NCBI GenBank assembly: GCA_964187785.1 | Contig: OZ076409.1 | Span: 53,818,001-53,882,000 of the forward strand | Length of the DNA stretch: 64,000 bases | Direction: 5' to 3' | Source of the DNA: Amphiscolops sp. MND2022 | Lineage: Eukaryota | Part shown: piece after piece, positions 11,829 to 55,115 of the stretch | How positions within the stretch are numbered: position 1 is the first letter of the stretch | How the letters are laid out: each line of letters opens with the position of its first letter | Notes under the pieces: generated by a model | The model's input: only the letters and a program-made list of their open reading frames with translations | What the model was told of the DNA's origin: nothing | Database searches by the model: none | Made by a program: the position numbers and the translations under genes

Positions 11829-13679
11829 TGTCGCAGGCTGCCGCCTGTGACGGTACGACAGTGACTACGTCGGCGAACGGGCAGGAGTTTGTACCCGGAA
11901 CACTACCCATCTATTGATCAGGTTAAAACATAAAACTTATAACTTTTACACCATTTTGATATTCAATGCGTATTATGTTTGTTGATGTTGCTAGCTTTAA
12001 TATACTTGCATATGTAAAATTAGTCTGTTAAAAGTTACATTTGAAGGTCCAAATAGTATAATTGTGACTTTGAAGATTGAAAGGTGCTCTGCAATTGTAA
12101 ACGTAATACGCGGCAATGTAGCTGTACAGCGTAAAGGAAATGAGTTCAAGTGAGCGAAACTCTTATTCCGGAGACGTCACTTGGACTCAACATTCCAGCC
12201 AATCACATCGCTTCTCTTTGCTATATTGGTACTGCTTTGATTGTGTAGTGGCCGAGTATGGCCAATTGACTCAATATGTATACTTCACTACGCGCTTTAG
12301 TCAAATGGCCGGTTCCGGCCTTCTAGATGAAATGAATTGTATACTCGTGTAATTAACCATACTAATCGGAAATTGCTGTAGATGTATCCCTGATGGTGGA
12401 TGAAAGCTTTCATACTGAAGAGTCTGCCTAGTAGACCTAGTGTTAAAATAAAAGCCGAGTAAGGCTTTCGCCCTCCCTTATTATGATGCTAGATTAATAA
12501 ACCGGATTTGTCCTTTTTCGGCCTTGGTAAAAGGCATGTTACTTTGATAGTGTAGTACTGCTTTAAACAAGCTGGACATGTAATATTTGATCTTCTTTCA
12601 ATCTATGTTAAATGATGAACACGTGGCAACGCGTGTCAAAAGGGATGCCTCTTGGATTCCCTCAGTGAGTATTGGTTTTTGTTTACAAAATAATAGTGAT
12701 GATGTTTTCATAAAACAAACCTTAAAGGTGCGGCTTGTATACTTATCGATGCGTTATTTATTTGATGTTGAATTCCTAGAAATTACCTGAATGTCAGGAA
12801 TTTACCCGGTTGAGACTTCAAACAAATATGTGCTTTGAAGTGTTGGTTAATTTACTAGTAATAATGATGATGTTTATCCCGTGACCTGTTAAGGCCGCGA
12901 TCATGTAATATTTGTTCTAATCAAAGAATCCGTGGAATGTGACTGTCACCTTTCGAGAGTATATATACCCATGTGTCGAGAGGAGAAGTCATAATTTCCA
13001 CAACCTTGTTTTGATAAAAATTGAATTGACATAGTGATTCCTAACTAGTTTTCTGGTGAAAATAATTGAATTGTTTGACCCAGTTCTGTCTTGATCCCTA
13101 CTACAAGAAAACAAAAGAAAGCGAGGAAATCGAGAGGGATAGAGATGCTCTCAGATATAGAAAACTTAGAAATTATGCTTGGTGAAAACCACTATGACAG
13201 AAATGAAAGGGAAGAGAGTGTCACTAGTAATCAGGCTAGGAGACCGAGAAGTCTCTCAAGAGATGAGTTTGAAAACAATGACGAGAATAATTACTTAGAA
13301 ACGGGTAGTTTTGGTTCCGGTACAAGTGCCAATCATGGCCAAAATTCGACAGGAGGCAATTCAAGTGCAGAGATCAATAGATTGTGCAGTGAGCTGAATT
13401 CGAGGCTATCTAGAGAACTTGATGACATGATGAGTAGTGTTAATACCCAGATCCAGAGAGCAATCAATGACGCGATCAGTGGTCAAATTATACCACAAAT
13501 CCAATCTGCCTTAAACGCCGGATCTGGACAGTTGACATTAAATAAATGGAACGTTTCGTCCGAGAGACCCGAAGCGAATTCCGAAGAAATCTATAGTGAG
13601 AAAGCCAAGAAAAGCAATAGAAGTGAGCAACGCTTTGATTACCAAAATGGCAGTCAGCCTACTCTACGTGCTTACGACA
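11829..13679 (+). repeat. 5' LTR of element A (1851 bp)
   Basis: Direct repeat of 24594-26446; TATA-like TATATATA near 12960; terminal 10-mers are 8/10 inverted. Confidence 0.95.
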
Positions 13680-14810
13680 TGGTGACAGGAGACAACGAAT
13701 CTCCAATCGAGGCTCCTGAGTTTCTCACAGGACGAATGCCACCAAGAAACCATCTTCACAGTTCCCATGACAACTTCGATCCACTACTAGACACGACGAT
13801 CCCAGCACAAGAAAGAAATGCTCAGGCCCCTGAACTAGACCCCATCAAACGACTGGCTGATGTCCTGACAAGCATGCAAAATCGTCCTTCAGCCCAACAG
13901 CTCACTATCCGCCCAGTCAACTCAAACACGATGACTTTCGATGGCAAAAGTGAAAAATTTGAGCTGTTTGAGGATCCGTTCCACACGATGATCAAGATGC
14001 AGCCTGAAATGTCTGAACAGATGAAAATTAACCATTTTCATTCGCTGCTAAGGAAAAACGCCTTACAAACATTCCGAAACATTAGCACAGCCAATCGACA
14101 GACCCTTGAAGACGTATTAAACATATTTCGACGAAAATACGTCAAACCTGAATCTCAAGCAACTGCCAAACACAAATGGCACCGTCTGGTGTTTGATCCA
14201 AACACAACAAAACTACCAGATTTCCTTGAAGAATTGAACCAAGGTGCAGAAAAAGCGTTTAGAGACAACGCCCAAAAGATGATTGACAGCCTCCTATACG
14301 CAAAACTGCCACCGAAACTAAAAAGATCAGTTAATATGGCTAGATTAGAAAATGGCTCATATGATGAGATAGTTGCTCATTTGGAGAGAGAATTGGAGCT
14401 TAACGCCCTCGAGGAGTCAGACGACCTACCAATGGCGACAATGACTTCCTCATCCGCCAAGCCTAAAACTCCTCTGTCCACTGCGCAAATGTCAGACATC
14501 ACTTGCAATTACTGCAAGGAAAAGGGCCACATGGTCAAGGACTGCGAAAAATTGAAAAAGAAAAAAGAGAAAGATGCCCAACAAGGCAAGTCGACCCAGA
14601 AGAAAACATCCGGAGTGTGGCACTTGTGGCAAAAAGAACCATCTGGAGGAAAGATGTTGGTTGGGTGCCGGTGCACATCTTAAAACCAAACGCACTAGGC
14701 CCGGAGACTCAACTGACAATAAGCCCAACCCAAAAGCTCAGAAACCTCAGCACAAGCAAACTTCATCAAGCTCCCAATCCTCATCTTCCAATGATGACTC
14801 AAAAAACTAA
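13094..14810 (+). pseudogene. gag: Gag (LTR-encoded N-terminus, capsid-like core, two Zn knuckles), one frameshift near 14600
   Basis: ORF 13091-14683 with FDGKSEKFELFED and CNYCKEKGHMVKDC; ORF 14574-14810 with CGTCGKKNHLEERC. Confidence 0.9.
13680..13691 (+). promoter_or_regulatory. Primer-binding site TGGTGACAGGAG
   Basis: TGG directly after the LTR-terminal CA; resembles a tRNA-Leu-type PBS but the cognate tRNA is not established. Confidence 0.75.
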
Positions 14811-17800
14811 CTTCGTCACGACTCCAATACAACCAACGAACTAATATCTGTCCGACAATACATCAGATCGGACCCTCCAACGCAAACTTTTCATCAATAC
14901 AATCAGCAATTGATGGGCTATCCCTCTGTTGTCTGGCAGCAGCAGATGGAAAAAGTTACCATCATCACTTACAATAATACCCATTTGTTCCAGAAACCAA
15001 TTCCTGTTTGGGATCCTGATTATACAACTACCTTTGCAACACGGTTCAGGCCCATTCCCCTGATTGACGATTACAACCCAACATACATCGACCCAGACTA
15101 TGGCAGAGATCCCTATTGGGACACCGAGCTTTACAACCAAGATCTACTGCAATTTCAATATGTCCTAGACGATATTGACTACTATAACAGAACAGTCCAC
15201 GAGAACCCTCCAATCACCCATAACAAGAAAACTTGAGCACTAATTGAAAACTGGCAAATGAACGATGGTACAAACCACCCAGTGTTCCCAAACCCCTTGG
15301 GGACCGAGAACCCTGAAACTACTGCCGAACCCATACCACAGTCACTATTAGACGAGAAACAATTCCAGAATGTACTCATAACCAAAGACGGTGAGCCAGA
15401 CTGTATACCTCTGTCAACCAACATTACCCTCAAATGCAAGAAACGCATGCTTTATTTCCCAATGGACTTTGGGGAACTGACTATTGATGGCCTCATAGAT
15501 ACTGGGGCTCTCTCCAGTGCAATCCCTGAAATGGACCTCCAGAAAATTCGTCTTCTATCTCCACAATCTGTTATCCGAGAAGGTCCGCCTCCGAACTTCC
15601 AAATAATGGTCGCTAATGGGCAACTGGAAACTCCCAAGAGTACCATAGAGCTCAAATTCGAAGTTGGTGACATTGAGTTCCATGAAATCTTCATAGTAAT
15701 GGAACATTTGACAAGACCGATCATTGGACTGATGTTCCTTCAAAGAAATCAGATAGTTCTGGACATGAGACAAGGAATCCTGAATTTCCTGTTCTTTTCA
15801 ATGCAGCTAAAAACAGCGGATCATAAATATTCAAATGTACTAGAACCAATCCTCAACCCCACCGAAATAACCATTCCGCCAAACGATAGAGTCCTAATCA
15901 GGACCAATTCCCTACTGTACCCCGAGAATGCTGTCACCGGGATACTACAACCGAGCGACCTTCTCCACGAAGAAGGCGACATCACATTTTGCCCAGCCTT
16001 GGTCACTCTAAATGATGGCAGTATATCGATACCTGTGAATAATTTCACAGACCACCCTTATAAACTTAAAAAGGGACTCCATATTGCCAATTTCTCAATC
16101 ATGACGCCAGAACAGATGAAATATGTCAAACCCGTAGACCCGGCTTCAACCTGGCACCTCATGCAAAATGACCAAGAGCAGGCAGCCCATTATGTCAGCA
16201 GCCTCATCAAGACGAACAGAAATCCTCAGAATTCCGAAAATTACTGGTTCCCAACCCCAGAAAACCCTGGAAACCCTGAGGAACACACACCTATCCAGAA
16301 ACGAATCCTACACGAGTTACAGGCCCTGCAGGACCTGGAGACACTCGACCCCACTACAGATGCAGCATCCCGTGCAAAATTCCTAGAAAACTTCGACTGG
16401 AAAGATTCCACTCTTACTCCTGAAGAAAAGGAGAAAGGAGAAAATTGAAGAATTACTAGTGGAATTCCATGATATATTTGCACGACACCGATTCGACATA
16501 GGCATGAACGAGGAATTCAAGGTGAAATCGACGCACCGGTGGCATATGGGTCCAAAAGCTTCACCCCAGCACAAATCAAGATATCAATCTATGCCAAAGA
16601 ATTCCTTGCAATTTATTTTGCATTCAAAGAATTTGGCTACATCTTCTGGGGTGCGCCCAAACCTGTCATTATCTTAACTGACAACAAAGCCGTAACACGA
16701 TTTTTCCAAGCGAAAATAATACCCCCAGCACTGTGGAACGCGTGTGATTATGTTATTCAGTTCAACTTTGTCATAGCGCACATCCCGGGGGCACAAAATA
16801 CAGCTGCCGATTACTTGTCCCGATTGGAAACAGATCCGAAGGACAAATTAGTAATGAAAATTCGCGAAGATGTACAAACACTACCAATCGAAATCAATGT
16901 CCAATCTGCAGGGGTGTCACAAGAAGAACAAATCTTCTACACCAATGATGACGATGAGACAGAAGACCAGTATTGGGCAAGGAAAGAAGCAATCAGGAAA
17001 AATCCGGCAACTGATGAGCCCACTGTTACTATACAAACTCTGTCAACAAATCTGGTCAAGCAACACCCCGATATACAAGTCCGACTGAGGAAGACGAACC
17101 AGATCATTATCGAGCAATCCAAAGATGCGGTACTACAACAATTGAAAGCAAAACTGCTTCATGAAGAGTATTCAGAAAATCTACTGCACCAGGATGCCCG
17201 ATACAGACATTACGCAAACAATCTGGAACGAATTATACTCAAGGATGAAATCCTGACAAGGCAATACTTTGATGAAACAGGGAACGTTAAATACCATCAA
17301 ATTCTGCTCCCGCAACATTTACTCCAGGAATTACCCAAGTCTTTCCACGGGACAGCGCATAAACATCCTGGCATTTCAAAAATGTTGCAGGAAATCCGAC
17401 AAAGGTAATACTACCCTAGCATTGCCAAACACGTCAAAAAATGGGTAGAGGGGTGTGAGGAATGCGCAAGAGACAAGCGAGTCCCCAACGCAACAATTAC
17501 GCCTGAATTACTCAACTTGCCCGAATGGGACCTTGGACCTGAAGACGCCATGCAAATCGACCTATTGCCGAATCTTCCCCCAAGTGGTGGGTATGAAAAC
17601 GTCTTAACAGCAATTGATGTATTTTCCAGATATTTGTTCGCCTATCCCCTTACGGACGCATCAGCGATCAATGTAGCAAAAGCGATCATTGACATCATGA
17701 CCAAACATGCATATCTGCCAACGACTCTTATTACTGACAAGGGTACTGCATTCACTTCTACAATTATTGCGGAGGTTACGCAAATTTTGGGCATAACACT

Positions 17801-18987
17801 CAAATGTGCAACAACAAAACACCCGCAGACAATTGGGAAACTGGAACGAACTCATGCCTCTTCGAAAACAAATCTCAAAATGGCATGTGGGGAATACCGC
17901 CGACAATGGCACAAATACTTGCCATTAGCAGTACTCAATCACAATACCAGTTATCATGCCAGTATAGGTTGTGAACCAACGAGAGTATTCCATGGAAGAA
18001 TTCCATACAACATCTTGGATCACAAGCTTGGAAACCATCAAACGAGCAGATCAATCCCACAACCGAATTCGCTGAAGAAATACAAATTCGGACAAAAATC
18101 CTGATTGACAAAACAAAGCAGAACATTATGCAGTCGTATATCAAGTACAAAGAATATTACGACCGCAAAGCAAAAGCCGCTCCATTAAAAGAGAATGAAT
18201 ACTGCTTTGTTGTACAGCCGAAAGCGGATCATCAAGGATCAAAAATTCCATTCCGTGATTATAGGTGGGTCGGACCATTTATAGTCCAAAAAGTTTTACC
18301 TAATGACAATTGTATTGTACGACGAATCAACACAAACGAGACTCAAATATTGCATCGGATTCGCTTTAAAAAGTTTGTCCCTAACCAACCGCTCGAGGAC
18401 AATTTCCGAGAACAGCGGTTACAGCCTGATGAAGAGATCGTCATTCCGCAAGACGACATATATATCATAACGTGGGAAACAGGTTTTGGCGAGCAGCTAA
18501 TTACACGAGGACACAATCCTATTCCGACTAGCATGCCGACCGGCGAACGGCCGAATGCGGCAGAACCGAGTCACAGTGACGTAAACGAGAACGAAGCGGA
18601 TTACATAATCACGCGAGAAGAATTAAACAACGACAATGCGACGCACAGCCAGAACGATCGCTTAAGTGATGACGTCACTAAAAGAAATGGAACTACTACA
18701 GTGACAGAAAATGAAGAATCTGATTGGCCGAATCCGGCCGTTTCCCCAAAAAACCAAGAAAAATCCTTGCCGAATACGGCAGATAGACCGGAAAACGATG
18801 AAAATTTTTCAGAAAGAAATTGACGAATGAAAACGATACACAAAATTCTCCAAACAGGGGGGATGATATTATCGTGCCCGAAATATCTGAAAACGATGCT
18901 AGAAATGAAAGTGTGAGTCCTAGAGGAAGGAAATATAATCTCAGGCCTAACCCTAACCCAAACTACTCAGAAGACTTCAGATACTAG
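14811..18987 (+). pseudogene. pol: Pol: aspartic protease, dUTPase-like relic, RT deleted, RNase H, integrase
   Basis: LIDTGA (PR); AYGSK...YAKEFLAI...LTDNKA (RH); HGTAHKH...CEEC, QIDLL, ITDKG, KLERTH (IN); several stops and frameshifts; no YxDD region. Confidence 0.92.
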
Positions 18988-19242
18988 AAAAGACTGAATT
19001 CAGATCAGGAAAACAAGCCCTGAATCTTCTACTTTTCTTTTATCTTTTATCATGTTTTTTTCCTCTCTCAGTCCCATGCGAGAAAGTATTTTGAATAAAT
19101 AATGGGACGTATGAAAGATCCCTTACAAAGAAAATAATACGGGATCAAGAAATCAAAAGAAAGAAATGCATATAAATGAAGGCAACAAAACAGAAAATCA
19201 ACAAAGTTTACAGTTTGAAAGTACATAAATACAAATGTTCAT

Positions 19243-22200
19243 TTAACCTTTAGAAGTGCCAACAGGAGATTCTTCTACGACAGAGGAAGCCCTAGACCTC
19301 GAACTACTCTTTTCCATTCGTCTCCGTTTACGGTCACTAGGAGGCACGACTGCGGGCATTTCCCCGACACTGTAGGACCGTGTATCATCAAGGCTCCCAG
19401 TCCCTTCGCCCACCCCAGGGAGGGCAGAACGGTATGAAGCAACCAGGGTCTTGTAGATCTTGTTCCTACCAAATTCGTCGACAAAAGTCCAAGGATCATA
19501 TGAAGCAGATGAGGCAGACTGACTGAAAGAAGCAGAAAGAAGAGAGAAATTGGCCAAACTGGAATCACTAGTACAGAAGGCAATGGAATCTGGAACCCCA
19601 GACAGATAACTGTGGGCAGGCAAAACCACCCACGTCCACGAGCCGGTTTTGGCAATTTGAAGTACTAATAGATCCGATACTCACAGCAGGGTATTGAGGG
19701 CTCTCGGAGGTGATGCACAAACAACTCAGTTTGAACAAGTACATTAGATGGCTATGCTCTTTCATGAAGTCAAGGTTAACAAGGAAGTCGATGAGGTCTG
19801 GGGACCCTTGACTGACATCAAATGAAGGCAAAGATAGAAGGATGAATCTCTTCTCTTCTGCAAGTTAGTGGTGAAGCTAGAGTTGTCTAAACATAGGACA
19901 CTAACGCATATCAGTTCAAAAGGAATAACCCTGGCTTATCGTAATATACTAACAATCACTGATGAGGTGATAGAAGAATTCGAGCTTCACGGGAAAAAAC
20001 TCATCACAGATGAGCGACCACTCAAAACTCTGAACCTGGAACAAATAGGAGTATTGACGGACCTAAGATATTCTCCACTTTGACAAAAGGAACTGGACCA
20101 AGATGGGATTACTTACTCTTGTCCTGACTCCCTGGCCCTGCTGCTTGGCAGAGTGCAAAGTGAGGAAGGAAACCACAAACTTCCACTCGTCCATAAATTC
20201 CTGGCACAAGATAGGCAGTGTGGAGAGCTCCAGATCACTCTTAGAAATCGCCTAAAAGAAACACGAAACGATCAAACGACAAGGCTTGAAACCTCTGACT
20301 GATATAAACTTGTCTGACGCCAAGACAATAGTAATCACTTACTTTAGCTAGAACGGGGCTGCGCTGTACCCAGTCCTCATTTGCTGATCCGCCAAAGGAA
20401 ATGACCAGGCCACGGAGTACCGAAAAGAAGTCTATGTGCCCGAAGACACTGTAGCTGCTTTTGTGCATTAGTTTCGACAAATTTAGCTGAGAGAACCTCA
20501 AGCAACTCTGGACAGCTCGCACGGAAGTAGGTACCTCGTCAATGGTCCGGATTAGCTCAGACGGGCATCCGGAACGAGCCACTATATCTGCTTTTGTAGA
20601 TATGGACGATAACAGGCGTGCCAAGGAGCCTAGTTCTCCAGTGAGATTAGTGGTGGGTAGACCACTACGGCAAACGATGACTTTGCATGGGTACTGGCCT
20701 TTCCAGAACCTCACCGACATGAAACGATTGGGTCCCTGGTCCTCGAATTCCAAAGCAAAGCACTGCAGGGTAGAGATCTGATCAGCAATGTCGCTCATGG
20801 AACAGTTGAAGAGATGTTGGAATGTGGCCTAGAGGAAAAATTCAAGAGTATAACCACTTAGGGAAGGAAGATAAACTCGAGGAAGAGGAAAGCAAAAGAT
20901 ACTTACAGTCATTCTATCTTCTCCCCAGTCAAAGTCACAGAGAGAGAGGCTTGGTGGTCGGTGAATGAGCTGATTTTAGCCCACATGCTTCGGAGGATTG
21001 CAATATCTCCATGGCTCTGGATGAAATCAGCCACCATGCTTAGCTGGGTTCGCGCGCGAGACTCGGGGGATATTAAAGGGGTAGTCCTGCCCCGGACGAA
21101 ATCCTCGTAAAAGGGGAAACTTTCCCCGATGTCAACCAACTCCACGTTCATAAACTTGGGGAGTTCCTTAGCTAGCTCCATCTTGCTCAAAATCTTTCCG
21201 TTCCTGCCTCGGACGCGGTGTTGAGTTTTGAAAGTGACGGGATCGGTACTTTTCAAATGTTCGTACCGCCATCTCTGGTCTCGTCTAAGATGCTTTTCAG
21301 TCCGGTGGTGCCTGAGAATTTCCATTGTCCCCTTACTCCGAATGGAAAAGTTTTTCTTGCAGATATGGCACCAGAACATATATGGATTGTGGATTGGATC
21401 TGCCGGACCTGAAATGAAAGACCGAGTCCACCCAATTTTAGCGAAGAACTCCTCTCGCATTGGGACTCCACGTTGGGACTGTCTCTTAGCCTTTGGTGTC
21501 TTCTTGGGCTGAGGTTTACTTTTGGTCTTTAGTGTCTGTTCCTTCACCTCGGACAAGGTAATATCCTGGCTGCTCCGATCAGTTTCTTGGCTGCCCTGTT
21601 GCAAGACGTCAGACTGTGCTGTGGTCGAAACGATCTGGATTGGGGCCTTGAAGGTGGCAGAAATTAGGGCCATTTCACCAGCGCTATCACTCTCTCCAAA
21701 CGAGGAGGAATCGCCTAAGCCTCCATAGTCAGTGGTGGTCTGGTCTTCTGAGTCGATGAAGGGCGAATCGCCTGTTTCGGCGTCACTTGAGTCACTGTCT
21801 ACACACCTAAAGGGAGTCTGCGCTCGTGACTTAAAATGATTGGTTCGCGAGGGAGCAATTGTTGGCCTACCTCGGACAGCGTCCAAAATCATCCGTTCCA
21901 TTGTGCTATGGGACATTCGGAGTGTTTCATCGGTCAAGACACGCAATAGATGGTACACTTGGGACTCCGTCAAGGTAACTGCTGTTTGTCCTGGTGGGAT
22001 CCGGAAGGCATTTGTCTCATCGAAATAAGTTTTCCAAATAGCCCGTGCTCGACCAGAAAGTTCAGGAAGCTGTGAATCGGGACCCCGAGAAGTGGATGCA
22101 ACCATTTCAGGCTGTTGTTGCTGACTGGGGATGGTTATGTCAGGATGGCCACTAGTTTCAGCTCCGGATTCGGATATCCCAGGGATACCTCCGTATAGGG

Positions 22201-22833
22201 AAGGGCAACCGCCACTGCTTGTCTCCTCGGCTGTCTTCTCTCCCTCGCTGAAATCGGCCAGGAATCGCACCTTGTGCTCATGCGTGGGCAACATGGGAGC
22301 TTCATATACGGAAGACTCGCAATCTTCATCGTCAACCAACTCTCCAACCTTTAAAGCGGCAGCCTCAACTTGTACAGCAGGAAGAAGCTCAGGTAACTGG
22401 GATTCGGGATTATTGACAACCCTTAACCCTGATTCCAAAGCATTTAGGCTAGTTTGTGACGCTCCTGCTGCATCAATCAGTATTGGGGTGCTGGACCGGA
22501 CTGCTGAGACAGAGGAGCTTGGTCTCCAGTAGGGGTTTCAGTACTGGGCGTGGCCATGGTAGGATCCACAGAAGTTGGCTGTTCTTGTGACTGAGGTCTT
22601 TCAGCCTCCATTTCGCGCACCTTGGCCTCTGCATAGATGTTCACATCCTCACTTTCAACGCTTGGAGGGGAAGTCTCAGATCTGATGACGCTTGTTGTAT
22701 TTGGAACAACACCTTCTTCAGGAACTGTCTGAAGTAATCCGGAGGGGTTTGATGTAGTCCCAGTTTCAGAAGTCTGATTATCTAAATAGAAAGAGATAAA
22801 ATTGAGCGGTATGCTTCCTTGAAAAGAATCCAT
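19243..22833 (-). pseudogene. Antisense accessory gene of element A: low-complexity N-terminus, C2H2 zinc finger, hAT-transposase-like body; spliced
   Basis: ORFs 22477-22833, 20909-22438 (WCHICKKNFSIRSKGTMEILRHHRTEKH), 20241-20798 (FALEFED...VRFW), 19568-19831, 19243-19629; GT-AG intron 20829-20906. Confidence 0.75.
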
Positions 22834-23898
22834 TTTACCGCGTTAGAAATCTTCCGGAAGTGATTTGAAAATTGAATGAAGCGTGCTTTCACGTGTTTAA
22901 TTGTTGGAAACAGGAAGCGTTATGTGAACGATGTTTGGCCCTGATCAAGCTAAACTTGTTCAAAAAATGAGGAAATCAGACCAACCTGGATTAGAAGACA
23001 TGTTTTGTGGTGATGTCCGTACGGCAACAGCCCAACGTGGGATGATGGAAGCGTGGGAAGTTGGTCGAACTCGGCTAGAGATGAAGGGAAGTTGGAGAGG
23101 ATCCGACGGGAGATGGCTACTGATGGAAGTGAAGGCAGGAGCGATCGTATATCGTTATCGAAGACTCGGATGGATGGATAATACAAATATAACAATTACG
23201 AGAGTAAAAGGAATTGGAATAAGTTAATAACCAAGGAGATTGAAAGTTGGAGTTCGTGGCTGAAGAATATTACCAGACTAATATTATATGATTATCTACA
23301 TATTTAAATTGTACATGGGGTCTGCCAGCGGAATGTACAGAAAACATTCATTATTTACAGCTTGCTTAGTTAGAGGCCGATCATGGCCGTTTGCTTTATT
23401 TTGTTTTACCGGTTTGTTCCTTCTTCCCAGTTATTTTTAGTTAGAACTTACGCCATTTTGAGTTACTTTAGGTATTATTTTCGTCATTTTTATTTATTCA
23501 TTTTTCATTTTATCAATGGGTAATTCTGATTGGCTGAAGCCATTTTGGGGAGACTCAGTAACGTAAGCCGTTAACCACCAGCAAACAACCCGTTAATTAC
23601 CCACTTGAAGTGATGTTATTTGTTGATAACAACTTGAAGATGCTTCTCTCACCCACTTGAGAAATGATATTAGGGGGGCTTACCACCTACAACTCAAAGA
23701 AGCGATGCCGCTAAAAATTTCCATTCAGAAAAGTTTACGACGACTCGGGACGATTAACCTGAGGATCTACCGCCGAGTAGAAAACCCGGGAAAATGTCCT
23801 AACTCGGCATATGACGGAATTTAGGTAGATTCACTCTGTCTTAAATTATTCAGCAATCAGTCGCCTTACCAGCTTCGAAAATCTCCAAAAAACTCATC

Positions 23899-24682
23899 AT
23901 GAGCAAGTTTAACCTCTCAAGAAAATTGTTTGACTTTGAAGAGTACGATTCTGATAACTCTGATAAATCAGTAATCTACATATCCAGTAGTGAAGATGAG
24001 TCCTCAGACTGAGAAACCGATTGTTCGACAGACACCGAGCAACTGATAGCCCGGATTGAAAGAGAAGTTACTTCCAGCCCGATGCTAATCGGGGGCAGGG
24101 TAATGACCATGGATGAACCCGAAGACGAGGCGAGAGCTGGGCCAAGTACGTCTCAAGTGGAGGAAGGGGTGACACCGAAACTAGGCCTTAAATACTTCGA
24201 TAGAGAAATGTGCTATGCCCCACCAAGGAAATTTGAAAAAAAAAACGCATAGAGCTCTGTAACACGATAATGCCCGTCCTAGAGTCGCCTATGTCCCCCC
24301 GGAGCACGAGAGGGGTCCGAATGTAGACACCCCCCTCCTCCAGCCGACTTCGAGTAATTTTCATGCGTCCTACCATGTGCAGAACTCAGTACCTTACCAA
24401 AATGTCAGTGAGGTGCGTTATAAAGGATGCATGGTTTGCGGCCGCTCAGTGGACTCAATCAAGGACGAAAAGGTGAAATGGTACATGCAACGATCTACAC
24501 CGAGAGATGAGCCTGAATACATCACGAGACTCAGAAAGGAGGCATATGAAAACGGACTCAATGCTGGCTGTTTTCGTTTTATCACACCCGCAGTGTCGCA
24601 GGCTGCCGCCTGTGACGGTACGACAGTGACTACGTCGGCGAACGGGCAGGAGTTTGTACCCGGAACACTACCCATCTATTGA
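23899..24682 (+). pseudogene. ORF3 of element A (acidic region plus CxxC domain), ends 89 nt inside the 3' LTR
   Basis: ATG at 23899; LIGGRVMT and AGPST match LVAGRKMT and AGPST of family B; CMVCGRS...VSQAAACDG...GTLPIY* in ORF 24377-24682. Confidence 0.75.
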
Positions 24683-26446
24683 TCAGGTTAAAACATAAAA
24701 CTTGAACCTTTTACACCATTTTGTTATTCAATGCGTATTTTGTTTGTTGATGTTGCTAGCTTTAATATATACTTGCACATGTAAAATTAGTCTGTTAAAA
24801 TTTACATTTGAAGGTCCAAATAGTATAATTGTGACTTTAAAGATTGAAAGGTGCTCTGCAATTGTAAACGTAATACGTGGCAATGTAGCTGTACAGCGTA
24901 AAGGAAACGAGTTCAAGTGAGCGAAACTCTTTTTCCGGAGACGTCACTTGGACTCAACATTCCAGCCAATCACATCGCTTCTCTTTGCTATATTGGTACT
25001 GCTTTGATTGTGTAGTGGCCGAGTATGGCCAATTGACTCAATATGTATACTTCACTACGCGTTTTAGTCAAATGGCCGGTTCCGGCCTTCTAGATGAAAT
25101 GAATTGTATACTCGTGTAATTAACCATACTAATCGGAAATTGCTGTAGATGTAACCCTGGTGGTGGATGAAAGCTTTCATACTGAACAGTGTGCCTAGTA
25201 GACCTAGTGTTAAAATAAAAGCCGAGTAAGGCTTTCGCCCTCCCTTATTATGATGCTAGAATAATAAACCGGATTTGTCCTTTTTCGGCCTTGGTAAAAG
25301 GCTTGTTACTTTGATAGTGTAGTACTGCTTTAAACAAGCTGGACATGTAATATTTGATCTTCTTTCAATCTATGTTAAATGATGAACACGTGGCAACGCG
25401 TGTCAAAAGGGATGCCTCTTGCATTCCTTCAGTGAGTATTGGTATTTGTTGACAAAATAATAGTGATGATGTTTTCATAAAACAATACTTAAAGGTGCGG
25501 CTTGTATACTTATCGGTGCGTTATTTATTTGATGTTGAATTCCTAGAAATTACCTGAATGTCAGGAATTTACCCGGTTGAGGCTTCAAACAATTATGTGC
25601 TTTGAAGTGTTGGTTACTTTATTAGTAATAATGATGATGTTTATCCCGTGACCTGTTAAGGCCGCGATCATGTAATATTTGTCTTAATCAAAGAATCCGA
25701 AGAATGTGACTGTCACCTTTCGAGAGTATATATACCCATGTGTCGAGAGGAGAAGTCATAATTTCCACATCCTTGCTTTGATAAAGATTGAATTGACATA
25801 GCTATTCCTAACTAGTTTTCTGGTTTAAATAATTGAATTATTTGACCCAGTTCTGTCTTGATCCCTACTACAAGAAAACAAAAGAAAGCGAGGAAATCGA
25901 GAGGGATAGAGATGCTCTCAGATATAGAAAACTTAGATATTATGCTTGGTGAAACCCACTATGACAGAAATGAAAGGGAAGAGAGTGTCATTAGTAATCA
26001 GGCTAGGAGACCGAGAAGTCTCTCAAGAGATGAGTTTGAAAACAATGACGAGAATAATTACTTAGAAACGGGTAGTTTTGGTTCCGGTACAAGTGCCAAT
26101 CATGGCGAAAATTCGACAGGAGGCAATTCAAGTGCAGAGATCAATAGATTGTCCAGTGAGCTGAATTCGAGGCTATCTAGAGAACTTGATGACATGATGA
26201 GTAGTGTTAATACCCAGATCCAGAGAGCAATCAATGACGCGATCAGTGGTCAAATTATACCACAAATCCAATCTGCCTGAAACGCCGGATCTGGACAGTC
26301 GACATTAAATAAATGGAACGTTTCGTCCGAGAGACCTGAAGCGAATTCCGAAGAAACCTATAGTGAGAAAGCCAAGAAAAGCAATAGAAGTGAGCAACGC
26401 TTTGATTACCAAAATGGCAGTCAGCCTACTCTACGTGCTTACGACA
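24594..26446 (+). repeat. 3' LTR of element A (1853 bp) with duplicate gag N-terminus (25858-26280)
   Basis: Direct repeat of the 5' LTR, followed by TSD ACAAA. Confidence 0.95.
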
Positions 26447-31474: not shown

Positions 31475-31584
31475 CGCTTTTCTCCAACATCCGCCTCCTC
31501 CTTAGTAAAACGAAATTTACTTCGGATATATATCCGAACTAAATTTCGTTTTACCAATGAGGAGGCGGAGGTTGGAAAAAAGCG
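31475..31584. repeat. 110-bp imperfect palindrome without spacer
   Basis: Symmetric about GGATATATATCC, with GC-rich CCGCCTCCTC / GAGGAGGCGG arms. Confidence 0.85.
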
Positions 31585-32645: not shown

Positions 32646-34946
32646 TGTCGCAGCGTCATGGTTGCTCTGGCCCAGTTGTGCAAGTGTGAAAAGAGAACGA
32701 CAGATGCAGCCCCAGAAAACAAACTTGCTTTATTTAAACCCTACAAACTGTCTTTTTCTTTCCTTTAGTGCCTCCTTACTTGTTTTAACTGACAAATCTA
32801 TTACTGTAAATATTTGTTTCTATATTTTCCCTATTTGAAGTGTAAAAGGTAATCACAAATCGAGACACATTTTATCAGGTGTTTTTTTGACGTTTTCACC
32901 TTGGCCACAACTCCAATTGCTGAATCATTTTGTCAAACTTAGTAGGTTGTACTCATGAATGGAAGTTGATGATTACTTAACACGTGAATTTTGAACCAAC
33001 AATCATGCGTCACTATGCGGAAAACGTAGTGACGTATGTACTTTGATGTGCTGTTTTTAATGGTTACCGCATATGCGGCATTATGCAGGAATCCATCATT
33101 TCTCTCGCACAGTGCTATGGCCTATTTATACGCCAACATGTGGAAAATCACCGGCGCACATGCGTCAACAAGCGGTTTTCCACATTATTCATCATACGGC
33201 GCTATACTATGGTTGCAATTCAACTATACATTACTCTGCGGAAAAATAAAAACGTATATACGTTAATATTCGGATTTCCAGGGTTCTCACAAAAATTGTG
33301 CAAAACTGGATCTACTTGTCATGTAATGTATACTTTGAAGCTACATATAGAATTACGACAAATGACGTAATACTTTTTATATATTTCTGGAACAATGACA
33401 CTCATGAAAATGGGTGTAATCCCAGATTTTTTATTGATGCGTAAAACTGCAGGGGCTAATCATACTTTGACATAACCACCGTCAGAAACAGTTGCTTGAA
33501 ATCATACATCAATCTTTGTAAAAGCAGTTTTACAATCAATTTTTGTTCTACCTTCCCAATTTGTTTTCTCAAAGGCTCTTGAATAAATTTATATTCTTTT
33601 CCAGCAATCTCAATACCCTTCTCACTTGAGAAAGATGGGAAAGAAGAAAGACAGGAGGTCTAGAAGAATGGAAACACCACCCCCAGACAGAGAGTTGAGT
33701 GAAGCACAGGTAGAAACGTCAAATCAAGGTAACGAAACTTTAACTAATGTTAATATCGTTGTTCAGTAAATTTTAAGTGGAGACGAAACGAGGCCTCAAA
33801 TAGAAGAATGTAGACAAATTAGCAATGAGATCCAAGCATGGACAGAAACCTTCGAACAAAAGAATAACGACAGAAAATTGAAAATGAGAGAAGAGATGGA
33901 AAACAAGTTTAATGCAATTTGAAAGAAATGAGAACAAATAGGAGTGAATCGACAATAACAAATCCCAGATCTGAATTGAACGGAACCCAGGACTCAACCT
34001 TCGGGATCCAAAAATGATAGTTCTAATGGAGCTCACGCATCTAACGTAGAAAACTCAGATACAGAAAATGAAGGTGACCATCCCTTTAGAGCCTCTGATT
34101 TTTAGAGAATGGAGGAATCCTGCTAGACCGCTGTATACTCATTTTTCAAGCTCTCCGGTGAGGGCATACTTTGAGTTTGAAAGCGACTAAGTTGTCTCGA
34201 AAACGGACGCGATTTTTTAAAACAAAATTTTACAACTACTTTCTACAATGATAACTTCTCGCATTTAGGTTTAGTCTCGAATTTGGTCGTTTCGCGCCAA
34301 TGGTGATTGTACGACAATTGTCTGATTATACAAACATGCGTTTGGACAATTGGAAAATCAATTGTATAAAGGAAGTTTTGATGATCAATTTTTAACAAAT
34401 TTGCCATGAAAAGAAAGCCCTGAAATAGACTAAAGAGTAGTGTTGAATCAAACTCACAGCATGTATTCAGATGCCTCTAGTTAGAATCACTGCTGCTGCA
34501 TATAGAGTTCCTTTCAAGTGTTCGCCAATGATACGTTTTCAAGGGGGTACTTTCGGGATAGCCTTTACTGGAAGATTCACATCACATTCGCTAGCAAAGA
34601 TCTGACAAGGAAACACCAATTTTGAACATTGTGTAATTTGGAAAAAAATTGCTAATCAACTGTGTTTAAGAGGTGAGGTTTTGCTGTGATATGTTGCATT
34701 GAAATTTTATGTTCCAAAAGTTTCTCCTATTTACACAAACGGAGAACTTTTACGTGATAGGATTTAGTGCACGGGACGGGACCTAATCTGTCAAACACCC
34801 ATCCCAAAAAGTTTCACGTTCTTTTCTATGATATTCTCGGACAACACCCAAAGTGTTACATTGAAAAAGGACGAGCAATGTGCTCAGGGATCCCCCGCAT
34901 AACATACCTGGAATTCTTCAAGTCCACATCCCGCCTAATTTTCAAG
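32646..34946 (+). repeat. 5' terminal repeat of C: truncated LTR (to about 34136) plus about 0.8 kb of P-like transposase fragment
   Basis: Colinear with 42903-45493; LTR end and PBS are missing; joins gag at TTCAAG. Confidence 0.8.
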
Positions 34947-36990: not shown

Positions 36991-39900
36991 AAAAAATACA
37001 TCAGAACAGCAAGTAACATCACAGTTATCAGGAAGACATAAATTGGTAGGGGTGATAACGACCGTGTTGTAGGAAGTCTCAAATAAATTCTGCAACGTTG
37101 CCCTTCTAACGCTGCTTTTTTCAAGAAATCCCAGACTGAAAACTTCCGGTTCTGGAGCTTATCTTTCCCCCTTCCAAAAACCAGAAAACGAGAAATTGAT
37201 CGAGGCTCTCATTCCAAACTTGACACGTTTGGTACAGTTGTAAATGATATCTGCACACCACCCACCCATGAACGAAAAACATACTCTTCAGTTCCAAGTT
37301 CAGGAATTGGAATGGTAATCGGTACAGGAACTTGGACTAGGGGAGGTAAACACAAACTCGCTCATTTAAATAGCTGACACAATTTCGGACGGCACTGCAG
37401 CTCGTAGTGCGAAACCAAAACTTGGAACCAGTTTTCTGGTAGAGTGACATCGCAGACTCTAAGTTTTGCTACAAAAGAAAAATACTGGCTGACAGCTTTG
37501 ATCTTCTCGCTCGAACTTGACCAAACAATGTTCACGAAATGACTGGTAAGACGTTCAAGTGCAGCAATGTATTGTTCTTCAGTACCCTGTAAAATGACTG
37601 CAGAATCGAAACACGATAAGCCACGAACCAAATTGGGTTTGACGATCTCATGCGATAGAAAATTCCACAGAATGACACTCTGCCAGTGACACGTGGAATA
37701 CGATGTGCGATTCAAAAGATAGGTTTTGGAGAATAAAAGTAACAAATACATGTTGAATGAAGGCACGGAACATGGTCAAAATGAAATTTGGATAAAAGCG
37801 TATAAAATGGGAAACTGTAAAACATTGTAAAACCTGTACAAACAATCGTCGAGAACACATAGGGAATGATGAACAATCTGGCCAGGTACGCCGTATCAAG
37901 ACGAAAACACTCGTCAAGGATGCTGGGCTATAACAACAAATTGACGATTTGAAACGAGGAGAGAACAATATTAATCTTTTAAAGAGACACAATACAAACC
38001 TCTCGCATGACGAATTGGTTAGAAGGGAGTCTGGATACTCAGCTGAGATCGTCAAGGACCTAATCCCAGTGGGTTGACAAGAATTCAATTAGAACCGAAG
38101 CTTCCTTTGGGAGATACGAGAGATCCAAACACGCGCTACAAAAACACATGATTTTTAAAACGAGAATCATAAAAATTACTTTTATTGTATAAAAAATTGT
38201 ACCTTGTGGCGAGTTGGAAACGATTTTAGCCGGTCTCTGTCCAGCGCAGTCCACAGCTTCATTAAAAGAAAGTCAAGTTTTGTGCGGTAATCATGTTTCT
38301 CTAGGATCCAAGATGTAGGCAAAGAGAGACAACGTTTTAATTCATTGGGACCGAAACCAGTGACAGAAGTAGGCCGTAATCGTCCGGGTAAAGAAAGTTA
38401 GAAGCAAGAATTGAGTCCATCTTGACAATCCACGAGACAAAAGAAGGAAGGGTGTGATTCGAACAGGCTCAGGAAAGAGGCAATCACTCCAATCTTCTTT
38501 TTTGGAATCAATGTCCCTCGGGGCCCAGTCCCTAGGCAAATTTGGTAGAAGACGTTGCCTGCCCAGAAACGTAGGAAAATGTGCGTCTCAAACTGGTTGC
38601 TTTGGAAAGACAAGAATATGTCCCGTTGGCAGAAATGAAAGGAACACAATGTCACAATGTTGCATCAACTCACGAAACATGAAGACGATAAGAGCCTCCA
38701 AAAAAATCACGGATAACCAAGATACGGATCTAACTGAAAATAATGGAAATGCACGTATGTTTACAAATAAACGTTCTCGATTACAACTGAGGGTGGATTC
38801 CTGACTATTGCCTGGGAAGAGACGAACCATCTCATACCACATTCCGGCGACAGTGTCCACGTTACCACCATGACGAAGTCCGTACTTCAGAATACCAATC
38901 TGCGAGATGACGTCCTCACTAGGATTTGAAGTAATGGAAAAATCAGAGAGTCTGTCCTGTCCCACTAAAAGGCGACAAGCATCTAGCTGGGGCGCTATTG
39001 GGTAGGTCTCCTTTGCCACTCTCTTGGCTTCTTGAAGTGTATTTCCAGTGAGTGTTTTCTCAGAGCGATCACACAAGGGCACGCCAGGTGTTTCCAACCT
39101 GGTCCGATGCTCTTTGACCAAATGTAAGTCGGTTTTGAAATGAGAGAGCAATTCGGGGACACCTCTTCTCATGAGTAATAACTCTACTCTACACACTTGA
39201 CACCTTCACTTGTATGGTGTCTTTTGACGATCGATTGGTCCAGTGGCAAAGAATTTAGGCATTGGATGATTGCGCATCATGTGAGTCATTAGAGAATACT
39301 AAGGCCTGCGCCGCTTAACACTTGGGGCTGGCATATCCTCGCAACCTGATTGAGTCATTGATTCCTCTAAATCTCGGTCGTCAGTCCTCGGTAATGCTTC
39401 TCTGATGACAACTTTACTGGGTGAAATCGGTGGATTTTCAATCATGTTAAAAGAAAAACTGCTGGTTGAGGTCGGGTCAGGGTCACTCAACATTGTTTGT
39501 GGGATCGTTCCCAAAACACTAGTTATCGCAAGCACTTCTCGTTTAGTAATGACCATCTTTGGCGGTTCCCCCGTAGTTGGTCAATAAACTTCATCAGAGG
39601 TTGAGGGATTCCCTGGCGGGTTCGCTGACATTGATTCGCCAAGTGGAACTACTCGCCAAATCATTTGAAGAATTTCTGCATCCCGCTCTGTTTCTTCTGG
39701 ACTGTAAAGAAAGGAAACAATCCGGGGCGAAGCGGTTTGGCAGCTGTTCAAGGCTTCAGCAGCCTTGGAGACGTCTTGCAGGAACGTATCATTGACAGTC
39801 AGTGATGATAAATTGTGTAATAGTGACTTTACATCACACTCTGGGTTTTGCGGAGGATCTTCCTTGTTTTCCTCTGTTGCTTCCCGATTTACAAGTCAAC

Positions 39901-40297
39901 CCCGATCAACCCTTGGGGACAAGGAAGTGTCTATATTGTCCACGATCACCTGTTATATCCCGTCGTTGTTTTGAGTTACGGATTCTTCAGTTGGTTGTGC
40001 AGAAGATGGAGGACTTCCAGTAGTACTTTGAATCAAATTGAAAGGATTTTCGGCAGTAAATTGCATCGGCTCAGGGGAATTCTCTGTTTCAACTGCGACA
40101 TTTCCAAATGGAATATATATTTTTGTTGGGGATCTAGCCGGCGACTTCTGAGTGGATCCCAGTTCAACTAAAACAAATTGATTTAATGTCACCTTGGAAG
40201 AAAGTTTCCCACTGAGCGAACCTAGTCTTGATAGACAACTGAATCCGGACGCGGTGGAAGAAAGTTCAAAAAACGCACGGAGGTAACTCAAAACCAA
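36921..40297 (-). pseudogene. Antisense hAT-transposase-like zinc-finger gene of C, degenerate
   Basis: CRVELLLMRRGVPELLSHFKTDLH; LSFQ...LRFW; LVRGLSCFD...SQYFSF...LCQLFK; candidate intron 38696-38764. Confidence 0.7.
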
Positions 40298-40998: not shown

Positions 40999-41120
40999 AT
41001 GCGGCAATATGCGGAAATTTATGACCGCATATGCGGCAAGATACGGAAAATCACCACTACACATACGGCAGTATGCGGAAAATACGACCGCATATGCGGC
41101 ATGATGCGGAAAATCAGCCA
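40999..41120. repeat. Four 31-32-bp tandem units rich in ATGCGG, with two CCGCATATGCGG palindromes
   Basis: Read directly; the same palindrome occurs in both C LTRs (33067, 43384). Confidence 0.85.
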
Positions 41121-41867: not shown

Positions 41868-42946
41868 GTGAAAATAATTTTCACAAAAAAAGGAACCATT
41901 AACAATTTACAATTTGCTGTTGAAAACAGTCCCTTAATATCAATCCAATCGCCCGGGATCATCGATGTATCCAGTGATTCTGGAGAAGAGTTTGTAGTGC
42001 AACCAAATGACCTGCCTGAACTAGAGGAGAGATTCAGAGCTGGTGGACCGAGGTCAGACTTGATGATGGCATTTATTGGTGCTGCCTCTGCGACTTTGTT
42101 TGCATCGGAAACAGAAGATCCTGGAGCACGTGAAATGATTGACACTGCCGGGACCTCAATTGATTGTTAAATGATGGACATCATTGACGAACAACTCCTC
42201 AACAGGGAATCGTCCTCAACTTTGTTTGTTGATACTGGACCGGAGGACTCCCCAATGTCTCCCTGGGATCCGTCTAGAGCATGTGTCGATGAACGACTAT
42301 GGGAGACCATCAGCTGCGATTCTCCCTACGTCCAGAATTGGTAATCAAGGGACAACTGCAATCAATAGGCCCATACCGACATACTCAACTAATTTTACAG
42401 CCAAAAATTCTAGTTTCCGAACTCAACAATCTGTTGACTTCGAACATCAACAAGTGCATCACCTACCGAATAATACTCAAACAAGAATGGCAAACTCTAG
42501 AAGTGCTTTCACTTCTACTCAGAATAATTTACCTCAGTACAACAATGCTCCACTGTTGATTCAAATACCTTCTCATGGAGGGAGTTCAAACATTCGTTAG
42601 TTGAATGGCGGACCCAACCAGTATCACATCCTAATTTCCCTGTCCACGTAGAACACAGCACCTGCTGCTTTTGCTTCTCCACGAGAGACAGATGTACAAG
42701 CTCCTCCCCACTGCCATGCCCAACGTGGCTGGTTTTTGCGACTGGTGCGGCAAAAGCTACGACCTAAAAGCATTGCAGACTTTGGGGAAGCATCTTGTTG
42801 CTCCTTCCTACAATGGGGAGGCGGTCCGAGACAGGGGAGTGTGGTCTCGCGCCTTCATTGATGGATTCGAGGATGTGCTGTTCTCTTTTAAAGGTGCGGG
42901 ACTGCCGCAACTTCATGGTTGCTCTGGTCCAGTTGTGCAAGTGTGA
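41868..42946 (+). pseudogene. ORF3 of family C, ending inside the 3' LTR
   Basis: Acidic ORF 41868-42170, ORF 42184-42600, and 42671-42946 CDWCGKSYD...RAFIDG...FKGAGLPQLHGCSG aligning with ORF3 of A and B. Confidence 0.65.
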
Positions 42947-44690
42947 AAAAGAACGACAGATTCAGCCCGAGGAAACAAACTTGCTTTAATGAAACTCTAC
43001 AAACTGTCTTTTTCTTCCTTTAGTGCCAACTTTATTTGTTTTAATTGACAAATCTAGTCATTCAAAAGTTTGTTTCTGTATTCTCTCTATTTGAAATATT
43101 AAAGGTAATCTTAAATCGAGACACCTTTTATTAGGTGTTTTCTTTACGTTTTCACATTGGCCACAACTCAAATTGCTGAATCATATTGTCAAGGCTAGGT
43201 TGAACTCATGAATGGATCTTGATGATTACTTAACACGTGATTTTTGAACCAATAATCATGCGTCACTATGCAGAAGAAAACATAGTGACGTATGTATTTG
43301 AATGTCCTGTTTTTAAATATTAATTATGCGTTACCATGCGGAAACTTCACTACGCATATACAGCAACATGCGGAATTTTGTTTCCGCATATGCGGCATAA
43401 TGCTGAAATTCATCCTTTCTCTCGCACAGCGCTATGGCCTATTTATACGTCACTATGCGGAAAATCGCAGGCGCACATGCGTCAACATGCAGTTTTCAAC
43501 ATTATTCATCATACGGCGCTATACTATTGTTGCAAGACAACAATACGTTACTGTGCGAGAAAATAAAAACGCAAATACGTTAATATGCGGATTTCCAGGG
43601 TTCTCACAGAATTTTTGCAATACTTGATCTACATTTTATTGTATACTTTGGAGCTATAAATAGGATTACGACGTATGACGTCTTACTTTCTGTACACTTC
43701 TGGAACAATGACACTCATTAAAATGGGTGTTATCCCAGATATTATTCATCATACGGCGCTATACTATTGTTGCAAGACAACAATACGTTACTGTGCGAAA
43801 AAATAAAAATGTATATATGTTATTATGCGGAATTCCAGGGTTCTCACAGTATTTTTGCAGTACTTGATCTACATTTTAATGTAAATTTTGGATCTATAAA
43901 TAGGATTACGACATATGACGTCTTTCTTTCTATACACTTCTGGAACAACGACACTCATTAAAATGGGTGTTATCCCAGATATTTTTATTGATGCGTAAAA
44001 GTGCAGGGGCTAATCATACTTTTATATAACCACAGTCAGAAACAGTTGCTTGAAACCATACATCAATCTTTGTAAAAACAGTTTGCAATCAACTTTTGTT
44101 CTACCTTCCCAATTTGTTTTCTCAAAGGCTCTCGAAAAAAATCAAGGTTTCCCCAGCAATCTCAACACCGTTCTCACTCGAGAAAGGTGGGAAATAGGAG
44201 AAACAGGAGGTCTAGAAGATTGGAAACACCATCCCCAGACAGAGAGTTGAGTGAAGCACATGTAGAAACGTCAAATCAAGGTAACGAAACTTTAACTAAT
44301 GTTAATATCGTTGTTCAGTAAACTTTAAGTGGAGACGAAACGAGGCCTCAAATAGAAAAATGTAGACAAGTTAGCAATGAGATCAAAGCATGGACAGAAA
44401 ACTTCGAACAAAAGAATAACGACAGAATAATGAAAATGAGAGAAGAGATGGAAAACAAGTTTAATGCAATTTGAAAGAAATGAGAACAAATAGGAGTGAA
44501 TCGACAATAACCAATCCCAGATCTGAATTGAACGGAATCCAGGACTCTCAACCTTCAGGATACAAAAATTATAGTTCTAATGGAGCTCACGCATCTAACG
44601 TAGAAAACTCAGATACAGAAAATGAAGGTGACCATCCCTTTAGAGCCTCTGATTTGAGAGAATTAAGGAATCCTGCTAGACCGCTGTATA
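42903..44690 (+). repeat. 3' LTR of C (3'-truncated) with internal 240-bp tandem duplication 43501-43980
   Basis: Homologous to 32646-34136; ATTATTCATCATACGGCGC starts at both 43501 and 43741. Confidence 0.85.
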
Positions 44691-46260
44691 CTCATTTTTC
44701 AAGCTCTCCGGTGAGGGCATACTTTGAGTTTGAAAGCGACTAAGTTGTCTCGAAAACGGACGCGATTTTTTATAACAAAATTTTACAACTACTTTCCACA
44801 ACGTTAACTTCTCGCATTTAGGTTTAGTACCGACTTTGGTCGTTTCGCGCCAATGGTGATTGTACGACAATTGTCTGATTATACAAACATGCGTTTGGAC
44901 AATTGGACAATCAATTATATAAAGAAAGTTTTGATGTTCAACTTTTACCAAGTTTGCCATAAAAAGAAAGCCCTGAAATAGACTAAAGAGTAGTGTTGAA
45001 TCAAACTCACAGCATGTATTCTGATGCCTCTAGTTCGAATCCTGCTGCATATAGAGTTCCTTTCAAGTGTTCGCCAATGATACGTTTTCAAGGGGAACTT
45101 TCAGGATAGCCTTTACTGGAAGATTCACATCACATTCGCTAGCAAAGTTCTGACACGGAAACACTAATTTTGAACATTGGGTAATTTGGAAAAAATTGCT
45201 AATCAACTATGTTTAAGAGGTGAGATTTTGCTGTGATAAGTTGCACTGAAATTTTATGTTCCAAAAGTTTCTCCTATTTACACAAACGGAGAACTTCTAC
45301 GTGATAGGATTTAGTGCACGGGACGGGACCTAATCTACCAAAAACCCATCCCAAAAAGTTTCACGTTTTTTTCTATGATATCCTCGGACAATACCCAGTG
45401 TGTTACATTTAAAAGGGACGTGCAATGTGCTCACGGATCCACCGCATAACATACCTGGAATTCTTCAAGTCCACATCCCGCCTAATTTTCAAGAAGCGCC
45501 AATAATCAAATTTGAAAAAGTAAGAGTTGCTTTTTAAAGGCTGAGGGTTTATCCAAATAGCACTTGACATGCTCAGCTTCCACGTCAACTGGCAATTAGA
45601 ATTTTTGTTGCTCTTCATCATGTCTGTGGATATCGATGCAATTTTGCAAATACCCATGCTTGAGATGCTTGAATATAGCTCAATAGCCATTTATTTTTTC
45701 AGCTTGAACAACGGCAGCGCTCCATTTTTGGATTAGGTTATGGAGGTGTTTTCTATGATCTGGCGAAAATGAAATTCATGTTGAAAACATTAAAGTAATG
45801 TAATGATACCCACTAATGCATGATGTCGATGATTATGATGTTGACGGAAAATTCTGATCCGATTATTGCGTGGCAGTTGAGCATGTCATTGCTCTTTCAT
45901 GAAGTTTTAGCCTTTCTATCAAAAATAACAGAAACTGTTATTATCATCGGCAACGAAGCGGTGGATTTTGACCCGGAAGTCTGATTTTGTCTGATCAATT
46001 GAAACTTCATGAAAGAGCAATGACATGCTCAACTGCCACGCAATAATCGGATCAGAAATTTCCGTCAACATCATAATCATCGACATCATGCATTAGTGGG
46101 TATCATTGCATTACTTTTAATGTTTTCAACATGAATTTCATTTTCGCCAGATCATAGAAAACACCTCCATAACCTAATCCAAAGTCAATATGAAGAGATG
46201 GCAACAACATTGAAACGGGCTGGTGAATAACAGACACGCTTCGAGGTTTCAAGCATTTTC
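44690..46260 (-). pseudogene. P-element/THAP9-like transposase relic
   Basis: Motifs in the expected order on the minus strand: SLLF(H)EVSI...IHRFVAD; KIASISTD....N; NP...YFFKFDY; KISVS; YALTGEL; many stops; the duplicate at 34137-34946 keeps KIGVSL-QIFAS. Confidence 0.55.
45727..46183. repeat. Near-perfect inverted repeat: about 181-bp arms, about 94-bp spacer
   Basis: 45727-45907 vs 46002-46183, about three differences by eye. Confidence 0.95.
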
Positions 46261-55048: not shown

Positions 55049-55115
55049 ACCACTTAATGGAAGGCAAACAAGCAGTGCCGGTGAAGAAGACTCGACGCCA
55101 AACACAATCCATTAA

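Follow-up and report, generated by a model that had tools for sequence, protein, structure and literature searches.

The window, by which we mean the whole 64-kb stretch of DNA analysed here, contains LTR elements, two of which, A and C, each carry a gene on the strand opposite to gag and pol. Element A (11829-26446) has an LTR pair, a PBS, gag, protease, RNase H and integrase, all on the plus strand. Its LTRs (11829..13679 and 24594..26446) are 1.85 kb long, 97.3% alike and bounded by TG..CA, and its target duplication is ACAAA (5 bp); across elements, LTR size varies from 1.6 to 1.85 kb. The remains of gag and pol (PR, RH and IN) occupy 13079..18987, the end being approximate, and a stretch of RT near 16530, about 1 kb long, is gone. 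The gag frame (13079-13700) opens about 600 nt within the 5′ LTR, which thus overlaps its start, and crosses both the LTR end and the PBS, which begins at 13680. RT, RH and IN lie in one frame that is intact in other copies, which is the Ty3/Gypsy order; RT is deleted in the window copy of A. Element C (about 32646-45493) belongs to a second family and is older and more damaged than A, with a 5′ LTR region at 32646..34946 and a 3′ LTR region at 42903..45493, both with approximate ends. The pol sequences of the two families are 55% identical, as against about 20% (18-24%) for the antisense proteins; A and C are two distant Ty3/Gypsy families. Elsewhere in the window are family-A-type LTR starts or fragments (2539 and 4129-4564; solo or truncated), an unrelated Gypsy element (53858-59959) with 205-bp LTRs that are 98.5% alike and a fragmented RT-RH-IN region, and long MITE-like inverted-repeat elements (45727-46183, 47726-48557 and 31475-31584).

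The pol order is PR-RT-RH-IN, and a TG..CA LTR pair, a PBS and a short target duplication were found in the set made up of element A of the window and 7 of 20 fetched elements, picked for complete LTRs. No polypurine tract lies directly before the 3′ LTR (24576-24593 in the window; loci L062-L090), the preceding 18 nt not being purine-rich in any of seven cases. Neither family has a polypurine tract at this place; a sense ORF reaches or enters the LTR instead. This absence does not outweigh the other Ty3/Gypsy features of the elements. The sense extra ORF of A (23908..24682, plus strand) is divergent from the antisense gene and enters the 3′ LTR, and its counterpart in C (41898-42922, plus strand) lies before the 3′ LTR. 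In A and C alike the ORF encodes 285-360 aa with an acidic N-terminus and a CxxC near the C-terminus; similarity between A and C is weak (E 0.03), and neither has a Pfam match.

In each family integrase lies on one side of the antisense gene and the 3′ LTR on the other, and the location and orientation of the gene are constant in all 20 fetched pairs with pol matches and in all eight wider loci examined. This is the arrangement of an antisense additional ORF between pol and the 3′ LTR (aORF-3R). The gene is 3.8 kb long and multi-exon, with short canonical introns; counting a predicted short first exon it has six exons, and its predicted product is roughly 1,250 aa. Both window copies are broken. 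Gene A, on the minus strand, is predicted to begin with an exon of ATG, four codons and one nucleotide (22986..23001), followed by GT in 10/10 copies shown, and a 204-nt phase-1 5′ intron (22782..22985) that is less certain than the other introns. The large exon (20907..22781) encodes an acidic, Ser-rich low-complexity part and then a C2H2 BED-like finger, and is interrupted near 22505 and near 20947 by frame breaks peculiar to this copy. Predicted intron 1 (20829..20906, 78 nt, phase 0) precedes a 486-nt exon of 162 aa (20343..20828). Intron 2 (20252..20342, 91 nt, phase 0; GT 27/30, AG 30/30), a 135-nt exon of 45 aa (20117..20251), intron 3 (20036..20116, 81 nt, phase 0; GT 29/30, AG 28/30), an 82-nt exon of 27 aa plus one nucleotide (19954..20035) and intron 4 (19887..19953, 67 nt, phase 1; GT 28/28, AG 27/28) follow. 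The last exon (19243..19886) encodes about 385 aa in other copies; in the window it has lost about 510 nt near 19830 and is broken near 19630.

Gene C, likewise on the minus strand, has a predicted 5′ intron (40462-40168; GT/AG in 10/10 copies shown), a large exon (38765..40167) with several stops in the window copy, intron 1 (38696..38764, 69 nt, phase 0), intron 2 (38136..38202, 67 nt, phase 0; GT 25/27, AG 27/27) and intron 3 (37928..37999, 72 nt, phase 0; GT 26/27, AG 27/27). The donor of intron 4 lies at 37843, at the head of a region (37000..37843) that includes the truncated last exon, and a deletion near 37690 has removed the acceptor and about 100 codons. Four junctions are common to A and C, at the same positions and in the same phases (0, 0, 0 and 1), and the internal exons measure exactly 486, 135 and 82 nt in both families. 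Intron 4 differs in size, measuring 66-69 nt in A as compared with 528-766 nt in C. The phase-1 intron after the short ATG exon has both GT and AG in 10/10 copies shown of each family, and is likely to be a fifth shared, 5′ intron. A-type copies have an in-frame ATG inside this predicted intron, and the start codon assignment is therefore provisional. CTGATCAG and CTTCCGG motifs repeat within the 5′ intron, and a CCAAT-box-like motif upstream of the gene is conserved in both families (about 23535 and 40835, minus strand). The large exon is duplicated at loci L091 and L092, and one C-family copy (L083; G000:C5:30350037-30360036) has a Copia-like element inserted in its integrase region.

The antisense protein consists of a long acidic, Ser/Thr-rich region, a CxxC..H....H finger, the 162-aa exon and a helical last exon, in that order. 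The finger is conserved in A and C; its Pfam C2H2 matches are sub-threshold only, and ESM Atlas ZBED leads lie below 0.9. Structure was assessed exon by exon, from models of separate exons. The model of the 162-aa exon (pLDDT 50) has a helix, three strands, a helix and a strand, a predicted RNase H-like beta1-3/alpha/beta4 topology. With Foldseek, this model found the hAT transposase Hermes as its top match (E 0.013; ranks 1, 3, 5 and 6); a second fold search placed Hermes only at rank 15 (Z 3.3). The model of the last exon is helical (pLDDT 68). VIA gave Hermes as its top match (Z 5.7, rmsd 4.0, 140 aligned residues), tied with unrelated helical chains, and Foldseek found no match for it at E≤0.001. 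In the ESM Atlas, 24/30 matches fell in a Dimer_Tnp_hAT set at 0.92, with 147 shared features (below 170) and a recognition score of 2039 (below 2300), and ZBED/DUF659 leads scored 0.79-0.83. With its BED-like finger, predicted RNase H-like core and helical C-terminus, the A/C protein may follow the domain order of the hAT transposases (Hermes, PDB 8sjd/8edg) and the domesticated ZBED/FAM200/GTF2IRD2-like proteins. The hAT likeness is weak in every single test, yet repeated in the expected domain order, and we consider hAT ancestry of the antisense protein probable.

A captured host gene, or a gene of some other origin, would account for real introns without any hAT transposase, and we regard this reading as rather unlikely. 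In its favour, sequence comparison produced no link to hAT. Pfam searches with the exons and with 45 of 149 remote homologs gave nothing relevant, PDB sequence searches with three alignments gave no match, and profiles run against the ORFs of 40 PF05699 hAT loci of the genome (of 150 listed) gave no link, these loci looking Ac-like and possibly belonging to the wrong subgroup. An hhalign comparison with an alignment of 14 hAT-locus ORFs returned a probability of 0.1, and a PF14291 search of the genome returned no match, its control being equally silent. The fold scores for hAT likewise fall short of the levels that the tools themselves set for a confident match. Against this reading, three independent pieces of the protein (finger plus core, 162-aa exon and last exon) point to hAT/ZBED in the right order, and the homologs found are an element-borne family only. 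The A/C gene is kept by a retrotransposon, whereas domesticated ZBED-type proteins are kept by the host, and there is no significant sequence match between them.

The likeness to hAT, the association of the gene with different LTR types and the fact that DNA transposons commonly carry introns could together suggest a nested DNA transposon, riding passively or still moving itself. This reading is largely refuted, and we consider it very improbable. No consistent terminal inverted repeat was found in 10 elements, place and orientation are constant (20/20 fetched pairs; 8/8 wider loci), and dN/dS is about 0.1 at dS above 1. The catalytic motif looks lost: ERxFS was absent from 149 remote homologs (searched as E[RS]xFS), the conserved Glu at that position is absent in A5 and kept by host hATs, and at the two catalytic Asp positions, as located by eye, A has E/G and C has S/D. 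Because the Glu is absent, the Asp residues are not jointly kept and terminal repeats were not found, the antisense gene is, to judge from its sequence, not an active transposon. From hAT transposases the A/C protein thus differs in the apparent loss of the catalytic motif, in its long acidic N-terminal extension and in its want of terminal repeats. Of the explanations for its origin, the one we prefer remains descent from a hAT transposase gene.

The introns themselves were assessed in copies from the genome. Of the candidates returned by a DNA search, 1167 for A and 137 for C, 40 were scored in each family, and 30 loci were taken for each; C locus L053 was dropped because it overlaps L050. 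A protein search scored 150 of 6202 candidate places. The preliminary description had placed intron 1 of A on the minus strand at 20906-20829, as a 78-nt GTAAGT..TTTTTCCTCTAG segment flanked by DWGEDRMT and ATFQHLFNC codons, and that of C at 38764-38696, as a 69-nt GTAAAC..TTTTTTGGAG segment flanked by NRERLF and ALIVFMF; both placements hold. The slip in a CT run that it had invoked in A corresponds to the frame break near 20947, which is confined to the window copy (1/30 A loci). It had also proposed that the two introns occupy a homologous position. Consistent with this, an A-type profile aligns to 10/10 open C copies (E 1e-12 to 1e-8 for a nominal database of 1e6), and the alignment stops at profile 183/184 and C residue 179/180, one residue short of the donor in A as in C; the following exon is 486 nt in A and C alike. 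Where a single shared intron had been claimed, the segment is confirmed as a predicted intron, and it is one of four to five.

Splice-site conservation among copies, which the preliminary description had named as a check, was observed at intron 1 both in A (GT 28/30, AG 27/30) and in C (GT 27/29, AG 27/29). The GAG acceptor of C is a private variant of the window copy, CAG or TAG being present in 26/29 C copies. Over all eight splice sites, GT or AG is kept in 90-100% of the 20-30 alignable copies. As a control, only 1/58 interior dinucleotides of C intron 1 were as conserved as the splice sites (median 0.43), as against 22/68 in the young A set (median 0.83). The test is therefore carried by the C set and is weak in A alone, because A interiors, from young copies, are nearly as conserved. 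A GT donor, a pyrimidine tract and a YAG acceptor stand out above the interior clearly in C, with the control weak in A. In a wider sample, 11/11 further loci (68-85% identity in the 162-aa exon) retain AG/GT around three internal exons, and their intron 1 measures 71-249 nt. Among protein-database ORFs, which may come from the same species, the exon-end motif is followed by Val in 99/101 that have it, as a GT donor would give, at a median of 12 residues to the stop, and five read through; 19/120 lack the motif.

The antisense gene is under strong purifying selection. In the 14/30 A and 15/30 C loci used, dN/dS in the exons is 0.05-0.12 in A and 0.07-0.20 in C, and intron 1 of the same loci, read in frame, gives 0.82 and 0.80. 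The mirror frame of the exon on the gag-pol strand also has a low dN/dS (0.17-0.18); the window has no plus-strand ORF of 100 aa opposite the exon, and the low value is the usual shadow of the antisense exon. Wobble periodicity falls in each intron, and the frame changes from one side to the other of introns 2 and 4 in A and of the introns in C. Between selected exons, then, the segments are free in length and neutral in their interior. Intron 1 is 71-81 nt long in A and 63-77 nt in C. Both window copies are multiples of 3, which, with the stop-free C segment, could suggest an unspliced read-through linker, or mere decay, with only the large exon functional; a very young subfamily (L131-L133; 20/150 scored copies) also has a stop-free 75-nt intron 1 that yields an 847-codon open frame. 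We give this idea very little credence, since only 15/30 A and 8/29 C copies are multiples of 3 (15/30 and 21/29 are out of frame), dN/dS inside intron 1 is neutral, the A segment ends in an in-frame TAG, and the downstream exons are equally selected in changing frames. In the young subfamily, retention of intron 1 would yield a longer isoform. Since the downstream exons are under selection in frames that change from one to the next, it is likely that a separate spliced minus-strand mRNA is made, as the preliminary description had supposed.

It had further argued that the intron survives reverse transcription by being antisense to the genomic RNA, which agrees with signs of copying through RNA and with the want of intronless copies. 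In the window A element and the seven fetched elements, LTR pairs are 97.3-99.1% alike and closer within than between copies in 8/8, and 5-bp target duplications are perfect in 7/8; from these two features we conclude that the carrier elements were copied through RNA. Among 30 A and 29 C aligned copies none was intronless, and in an exact-match search for the junction, which covered the A type only, 29 matches had a gap of 70-90 nt and none a gap of 0-25 nt. The major spliceosome is not known to use CT..AC ends, the form in which these introns appear in the genomic RNA, and survival is expected because the introns lie on the opposite strand. Copies whose antisense genes are 96-97% identical have LTRs that are only 56-57% identical and fall into two types (L061-L068 and window A), a pattern pointing to possible module swapping between subfamilies. 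That visible swapping could suggest spread by DNA duplication or recombination, which would make intron survival uninformative about reverse transcription, a reading we think scarcely credible given that in 8/8 elements the two LTRs are closer to one another than to the nearest LTR of any other element, that the elements have their own 5-bp duplications on different contigs, and that RT-RH-IN frames are intact in other copies.

We return to predicted spliceosomal introns that have likely survived by virtue of their strand. It is quite probable, in our judgement, that two distant Ty3/Gypsy families carry an antisense gene with such introns, likely expressed from its own spliced mRNA and likely encoding a transposase-derived DNA-binding helper. 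An internal promoter between the antisense gene and the divergent sense ORF, which the two may share, would drive a minus-strand transcript that is then spliced; no consistent poly(A) hexamer was found behind the antisense stop among the copies compared. In the common ancestor of the families, an intron-containing hAT transposon would have inserted in reverse orientation downstream of pol and ahead of the 3′ LTR, arriving in the form of DNA (or of RNA that had not been spliced). Its ends and catalytic residues would then have been lost and the gene retained by the element; we think that this is a likely course of events. The roughly 1,250-aa product may bind element DNA through the BED-like finger and act on the transcription or silencing of the element, which we put at a little short of an even chance.

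The closest known counterparts are the antisense additional ORFs that plant Ty3/Gypsy elements carry between pol and the 3′ LTR, such as maize Grande gene23, rice RIRE2 and Retand TRP28/PF04195 (PMC7264820, PMC11963269). As far as these main texts go, such ORFs are present in most copies and are predicted to bind DNA, an own internal promoter has been demonstrated for gene23, and their origin is stated to be mostly unknown (PMC7264820, PMC11963269); the former also recommends looking for antisense transcripts that are spliced (PMC7264820). The A/C gene has the same position and orientation. The plant genes are described as plain ORFs, the word 'intron' being absent from both main texts, whereas in the A/C gene four to five introns are conserved and descent from hAT is likely. 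TRP28 is plant-only and has a Transposase_28 domain (PF04195), of which there is no Pfam match in the A/C gene. The accessible text of PMC13317346 yielded nothing on introns.

Spliced antisense genes are reported in deltaretroviruses (HTLV-1 hbz, HTLV-2 aph-2 and BLV AS1/AS2; PMC10186651, as far as consulted). Like the A/C gene, for which splicing is predicted, they produce an antisense spliced transcript from a reverse-transcribing element, and they encode nuclear regulators, as the A/C gene may also do. Their products are, by that account, small proteins whose genes start in the 3′ LTR and overlap viral genes, whereas the A/C gene is a dedicated, 3.8-kb, multi-exon unit. The his3AI retrotransposition indicator, as described in the part of the source consulted, follows the same strand rule, under which splicing removes an intron solely from a transcript that carries it in the sense direction (PMC9283973). 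It is an engineered mirror case: its intron is oriented with the genomic RNA and disappears, and the introns described here are oriented the other way and stay. Other mobile-element accessory genes include rotifer LTR ORF3 cargo, expressed from spliced messages as separate units (PMC5408684), and the anti-silencing factors PMD, borne by Gypsy, and MuDR VANC, plant-element genes tied to silencing (PMC5418596, PMC13547354). These resemble the A/C gene as cargo but are different proteins, and the portions of the three papers available to us describe no antisense multi-intron gene. In the literature searched, which included few subscription papers, no LTR element turned up with an antisense gene of several introns or with a gene derived from hAT.

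The A/C gene likely adds conserved introns and a probable hAT origin to the known antisense extra ORFs and, within that literature, offers the first testable origin for one. Retroelement cargo is expected to lose its introns in passage through RNA; the A/C gene has held four to five in place even as its protein diverged to about 20% identity, which shows in nature the strand rule on which retrotransposition reporters rely. Repeat annotation based on ORFs misses such genes, and databases hold their separate exons only. It is possible, though we hold it somewhat less probable than its opposite, that a large Gypsy lineage has domesticated a hAT transposase, captured backwards together with its original introns, as a catalytically dead protein that binds specific DNA sequences and so activates the carrier element or frees it from silencing. 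If so, one class of transposon would have tamed the enzyme of another, antisense capture may be a general route by which retroelements gain intact intron-bearing genes, and the introns would preserve, as a fossil, the way in which the gene of the donor transposon was organised.
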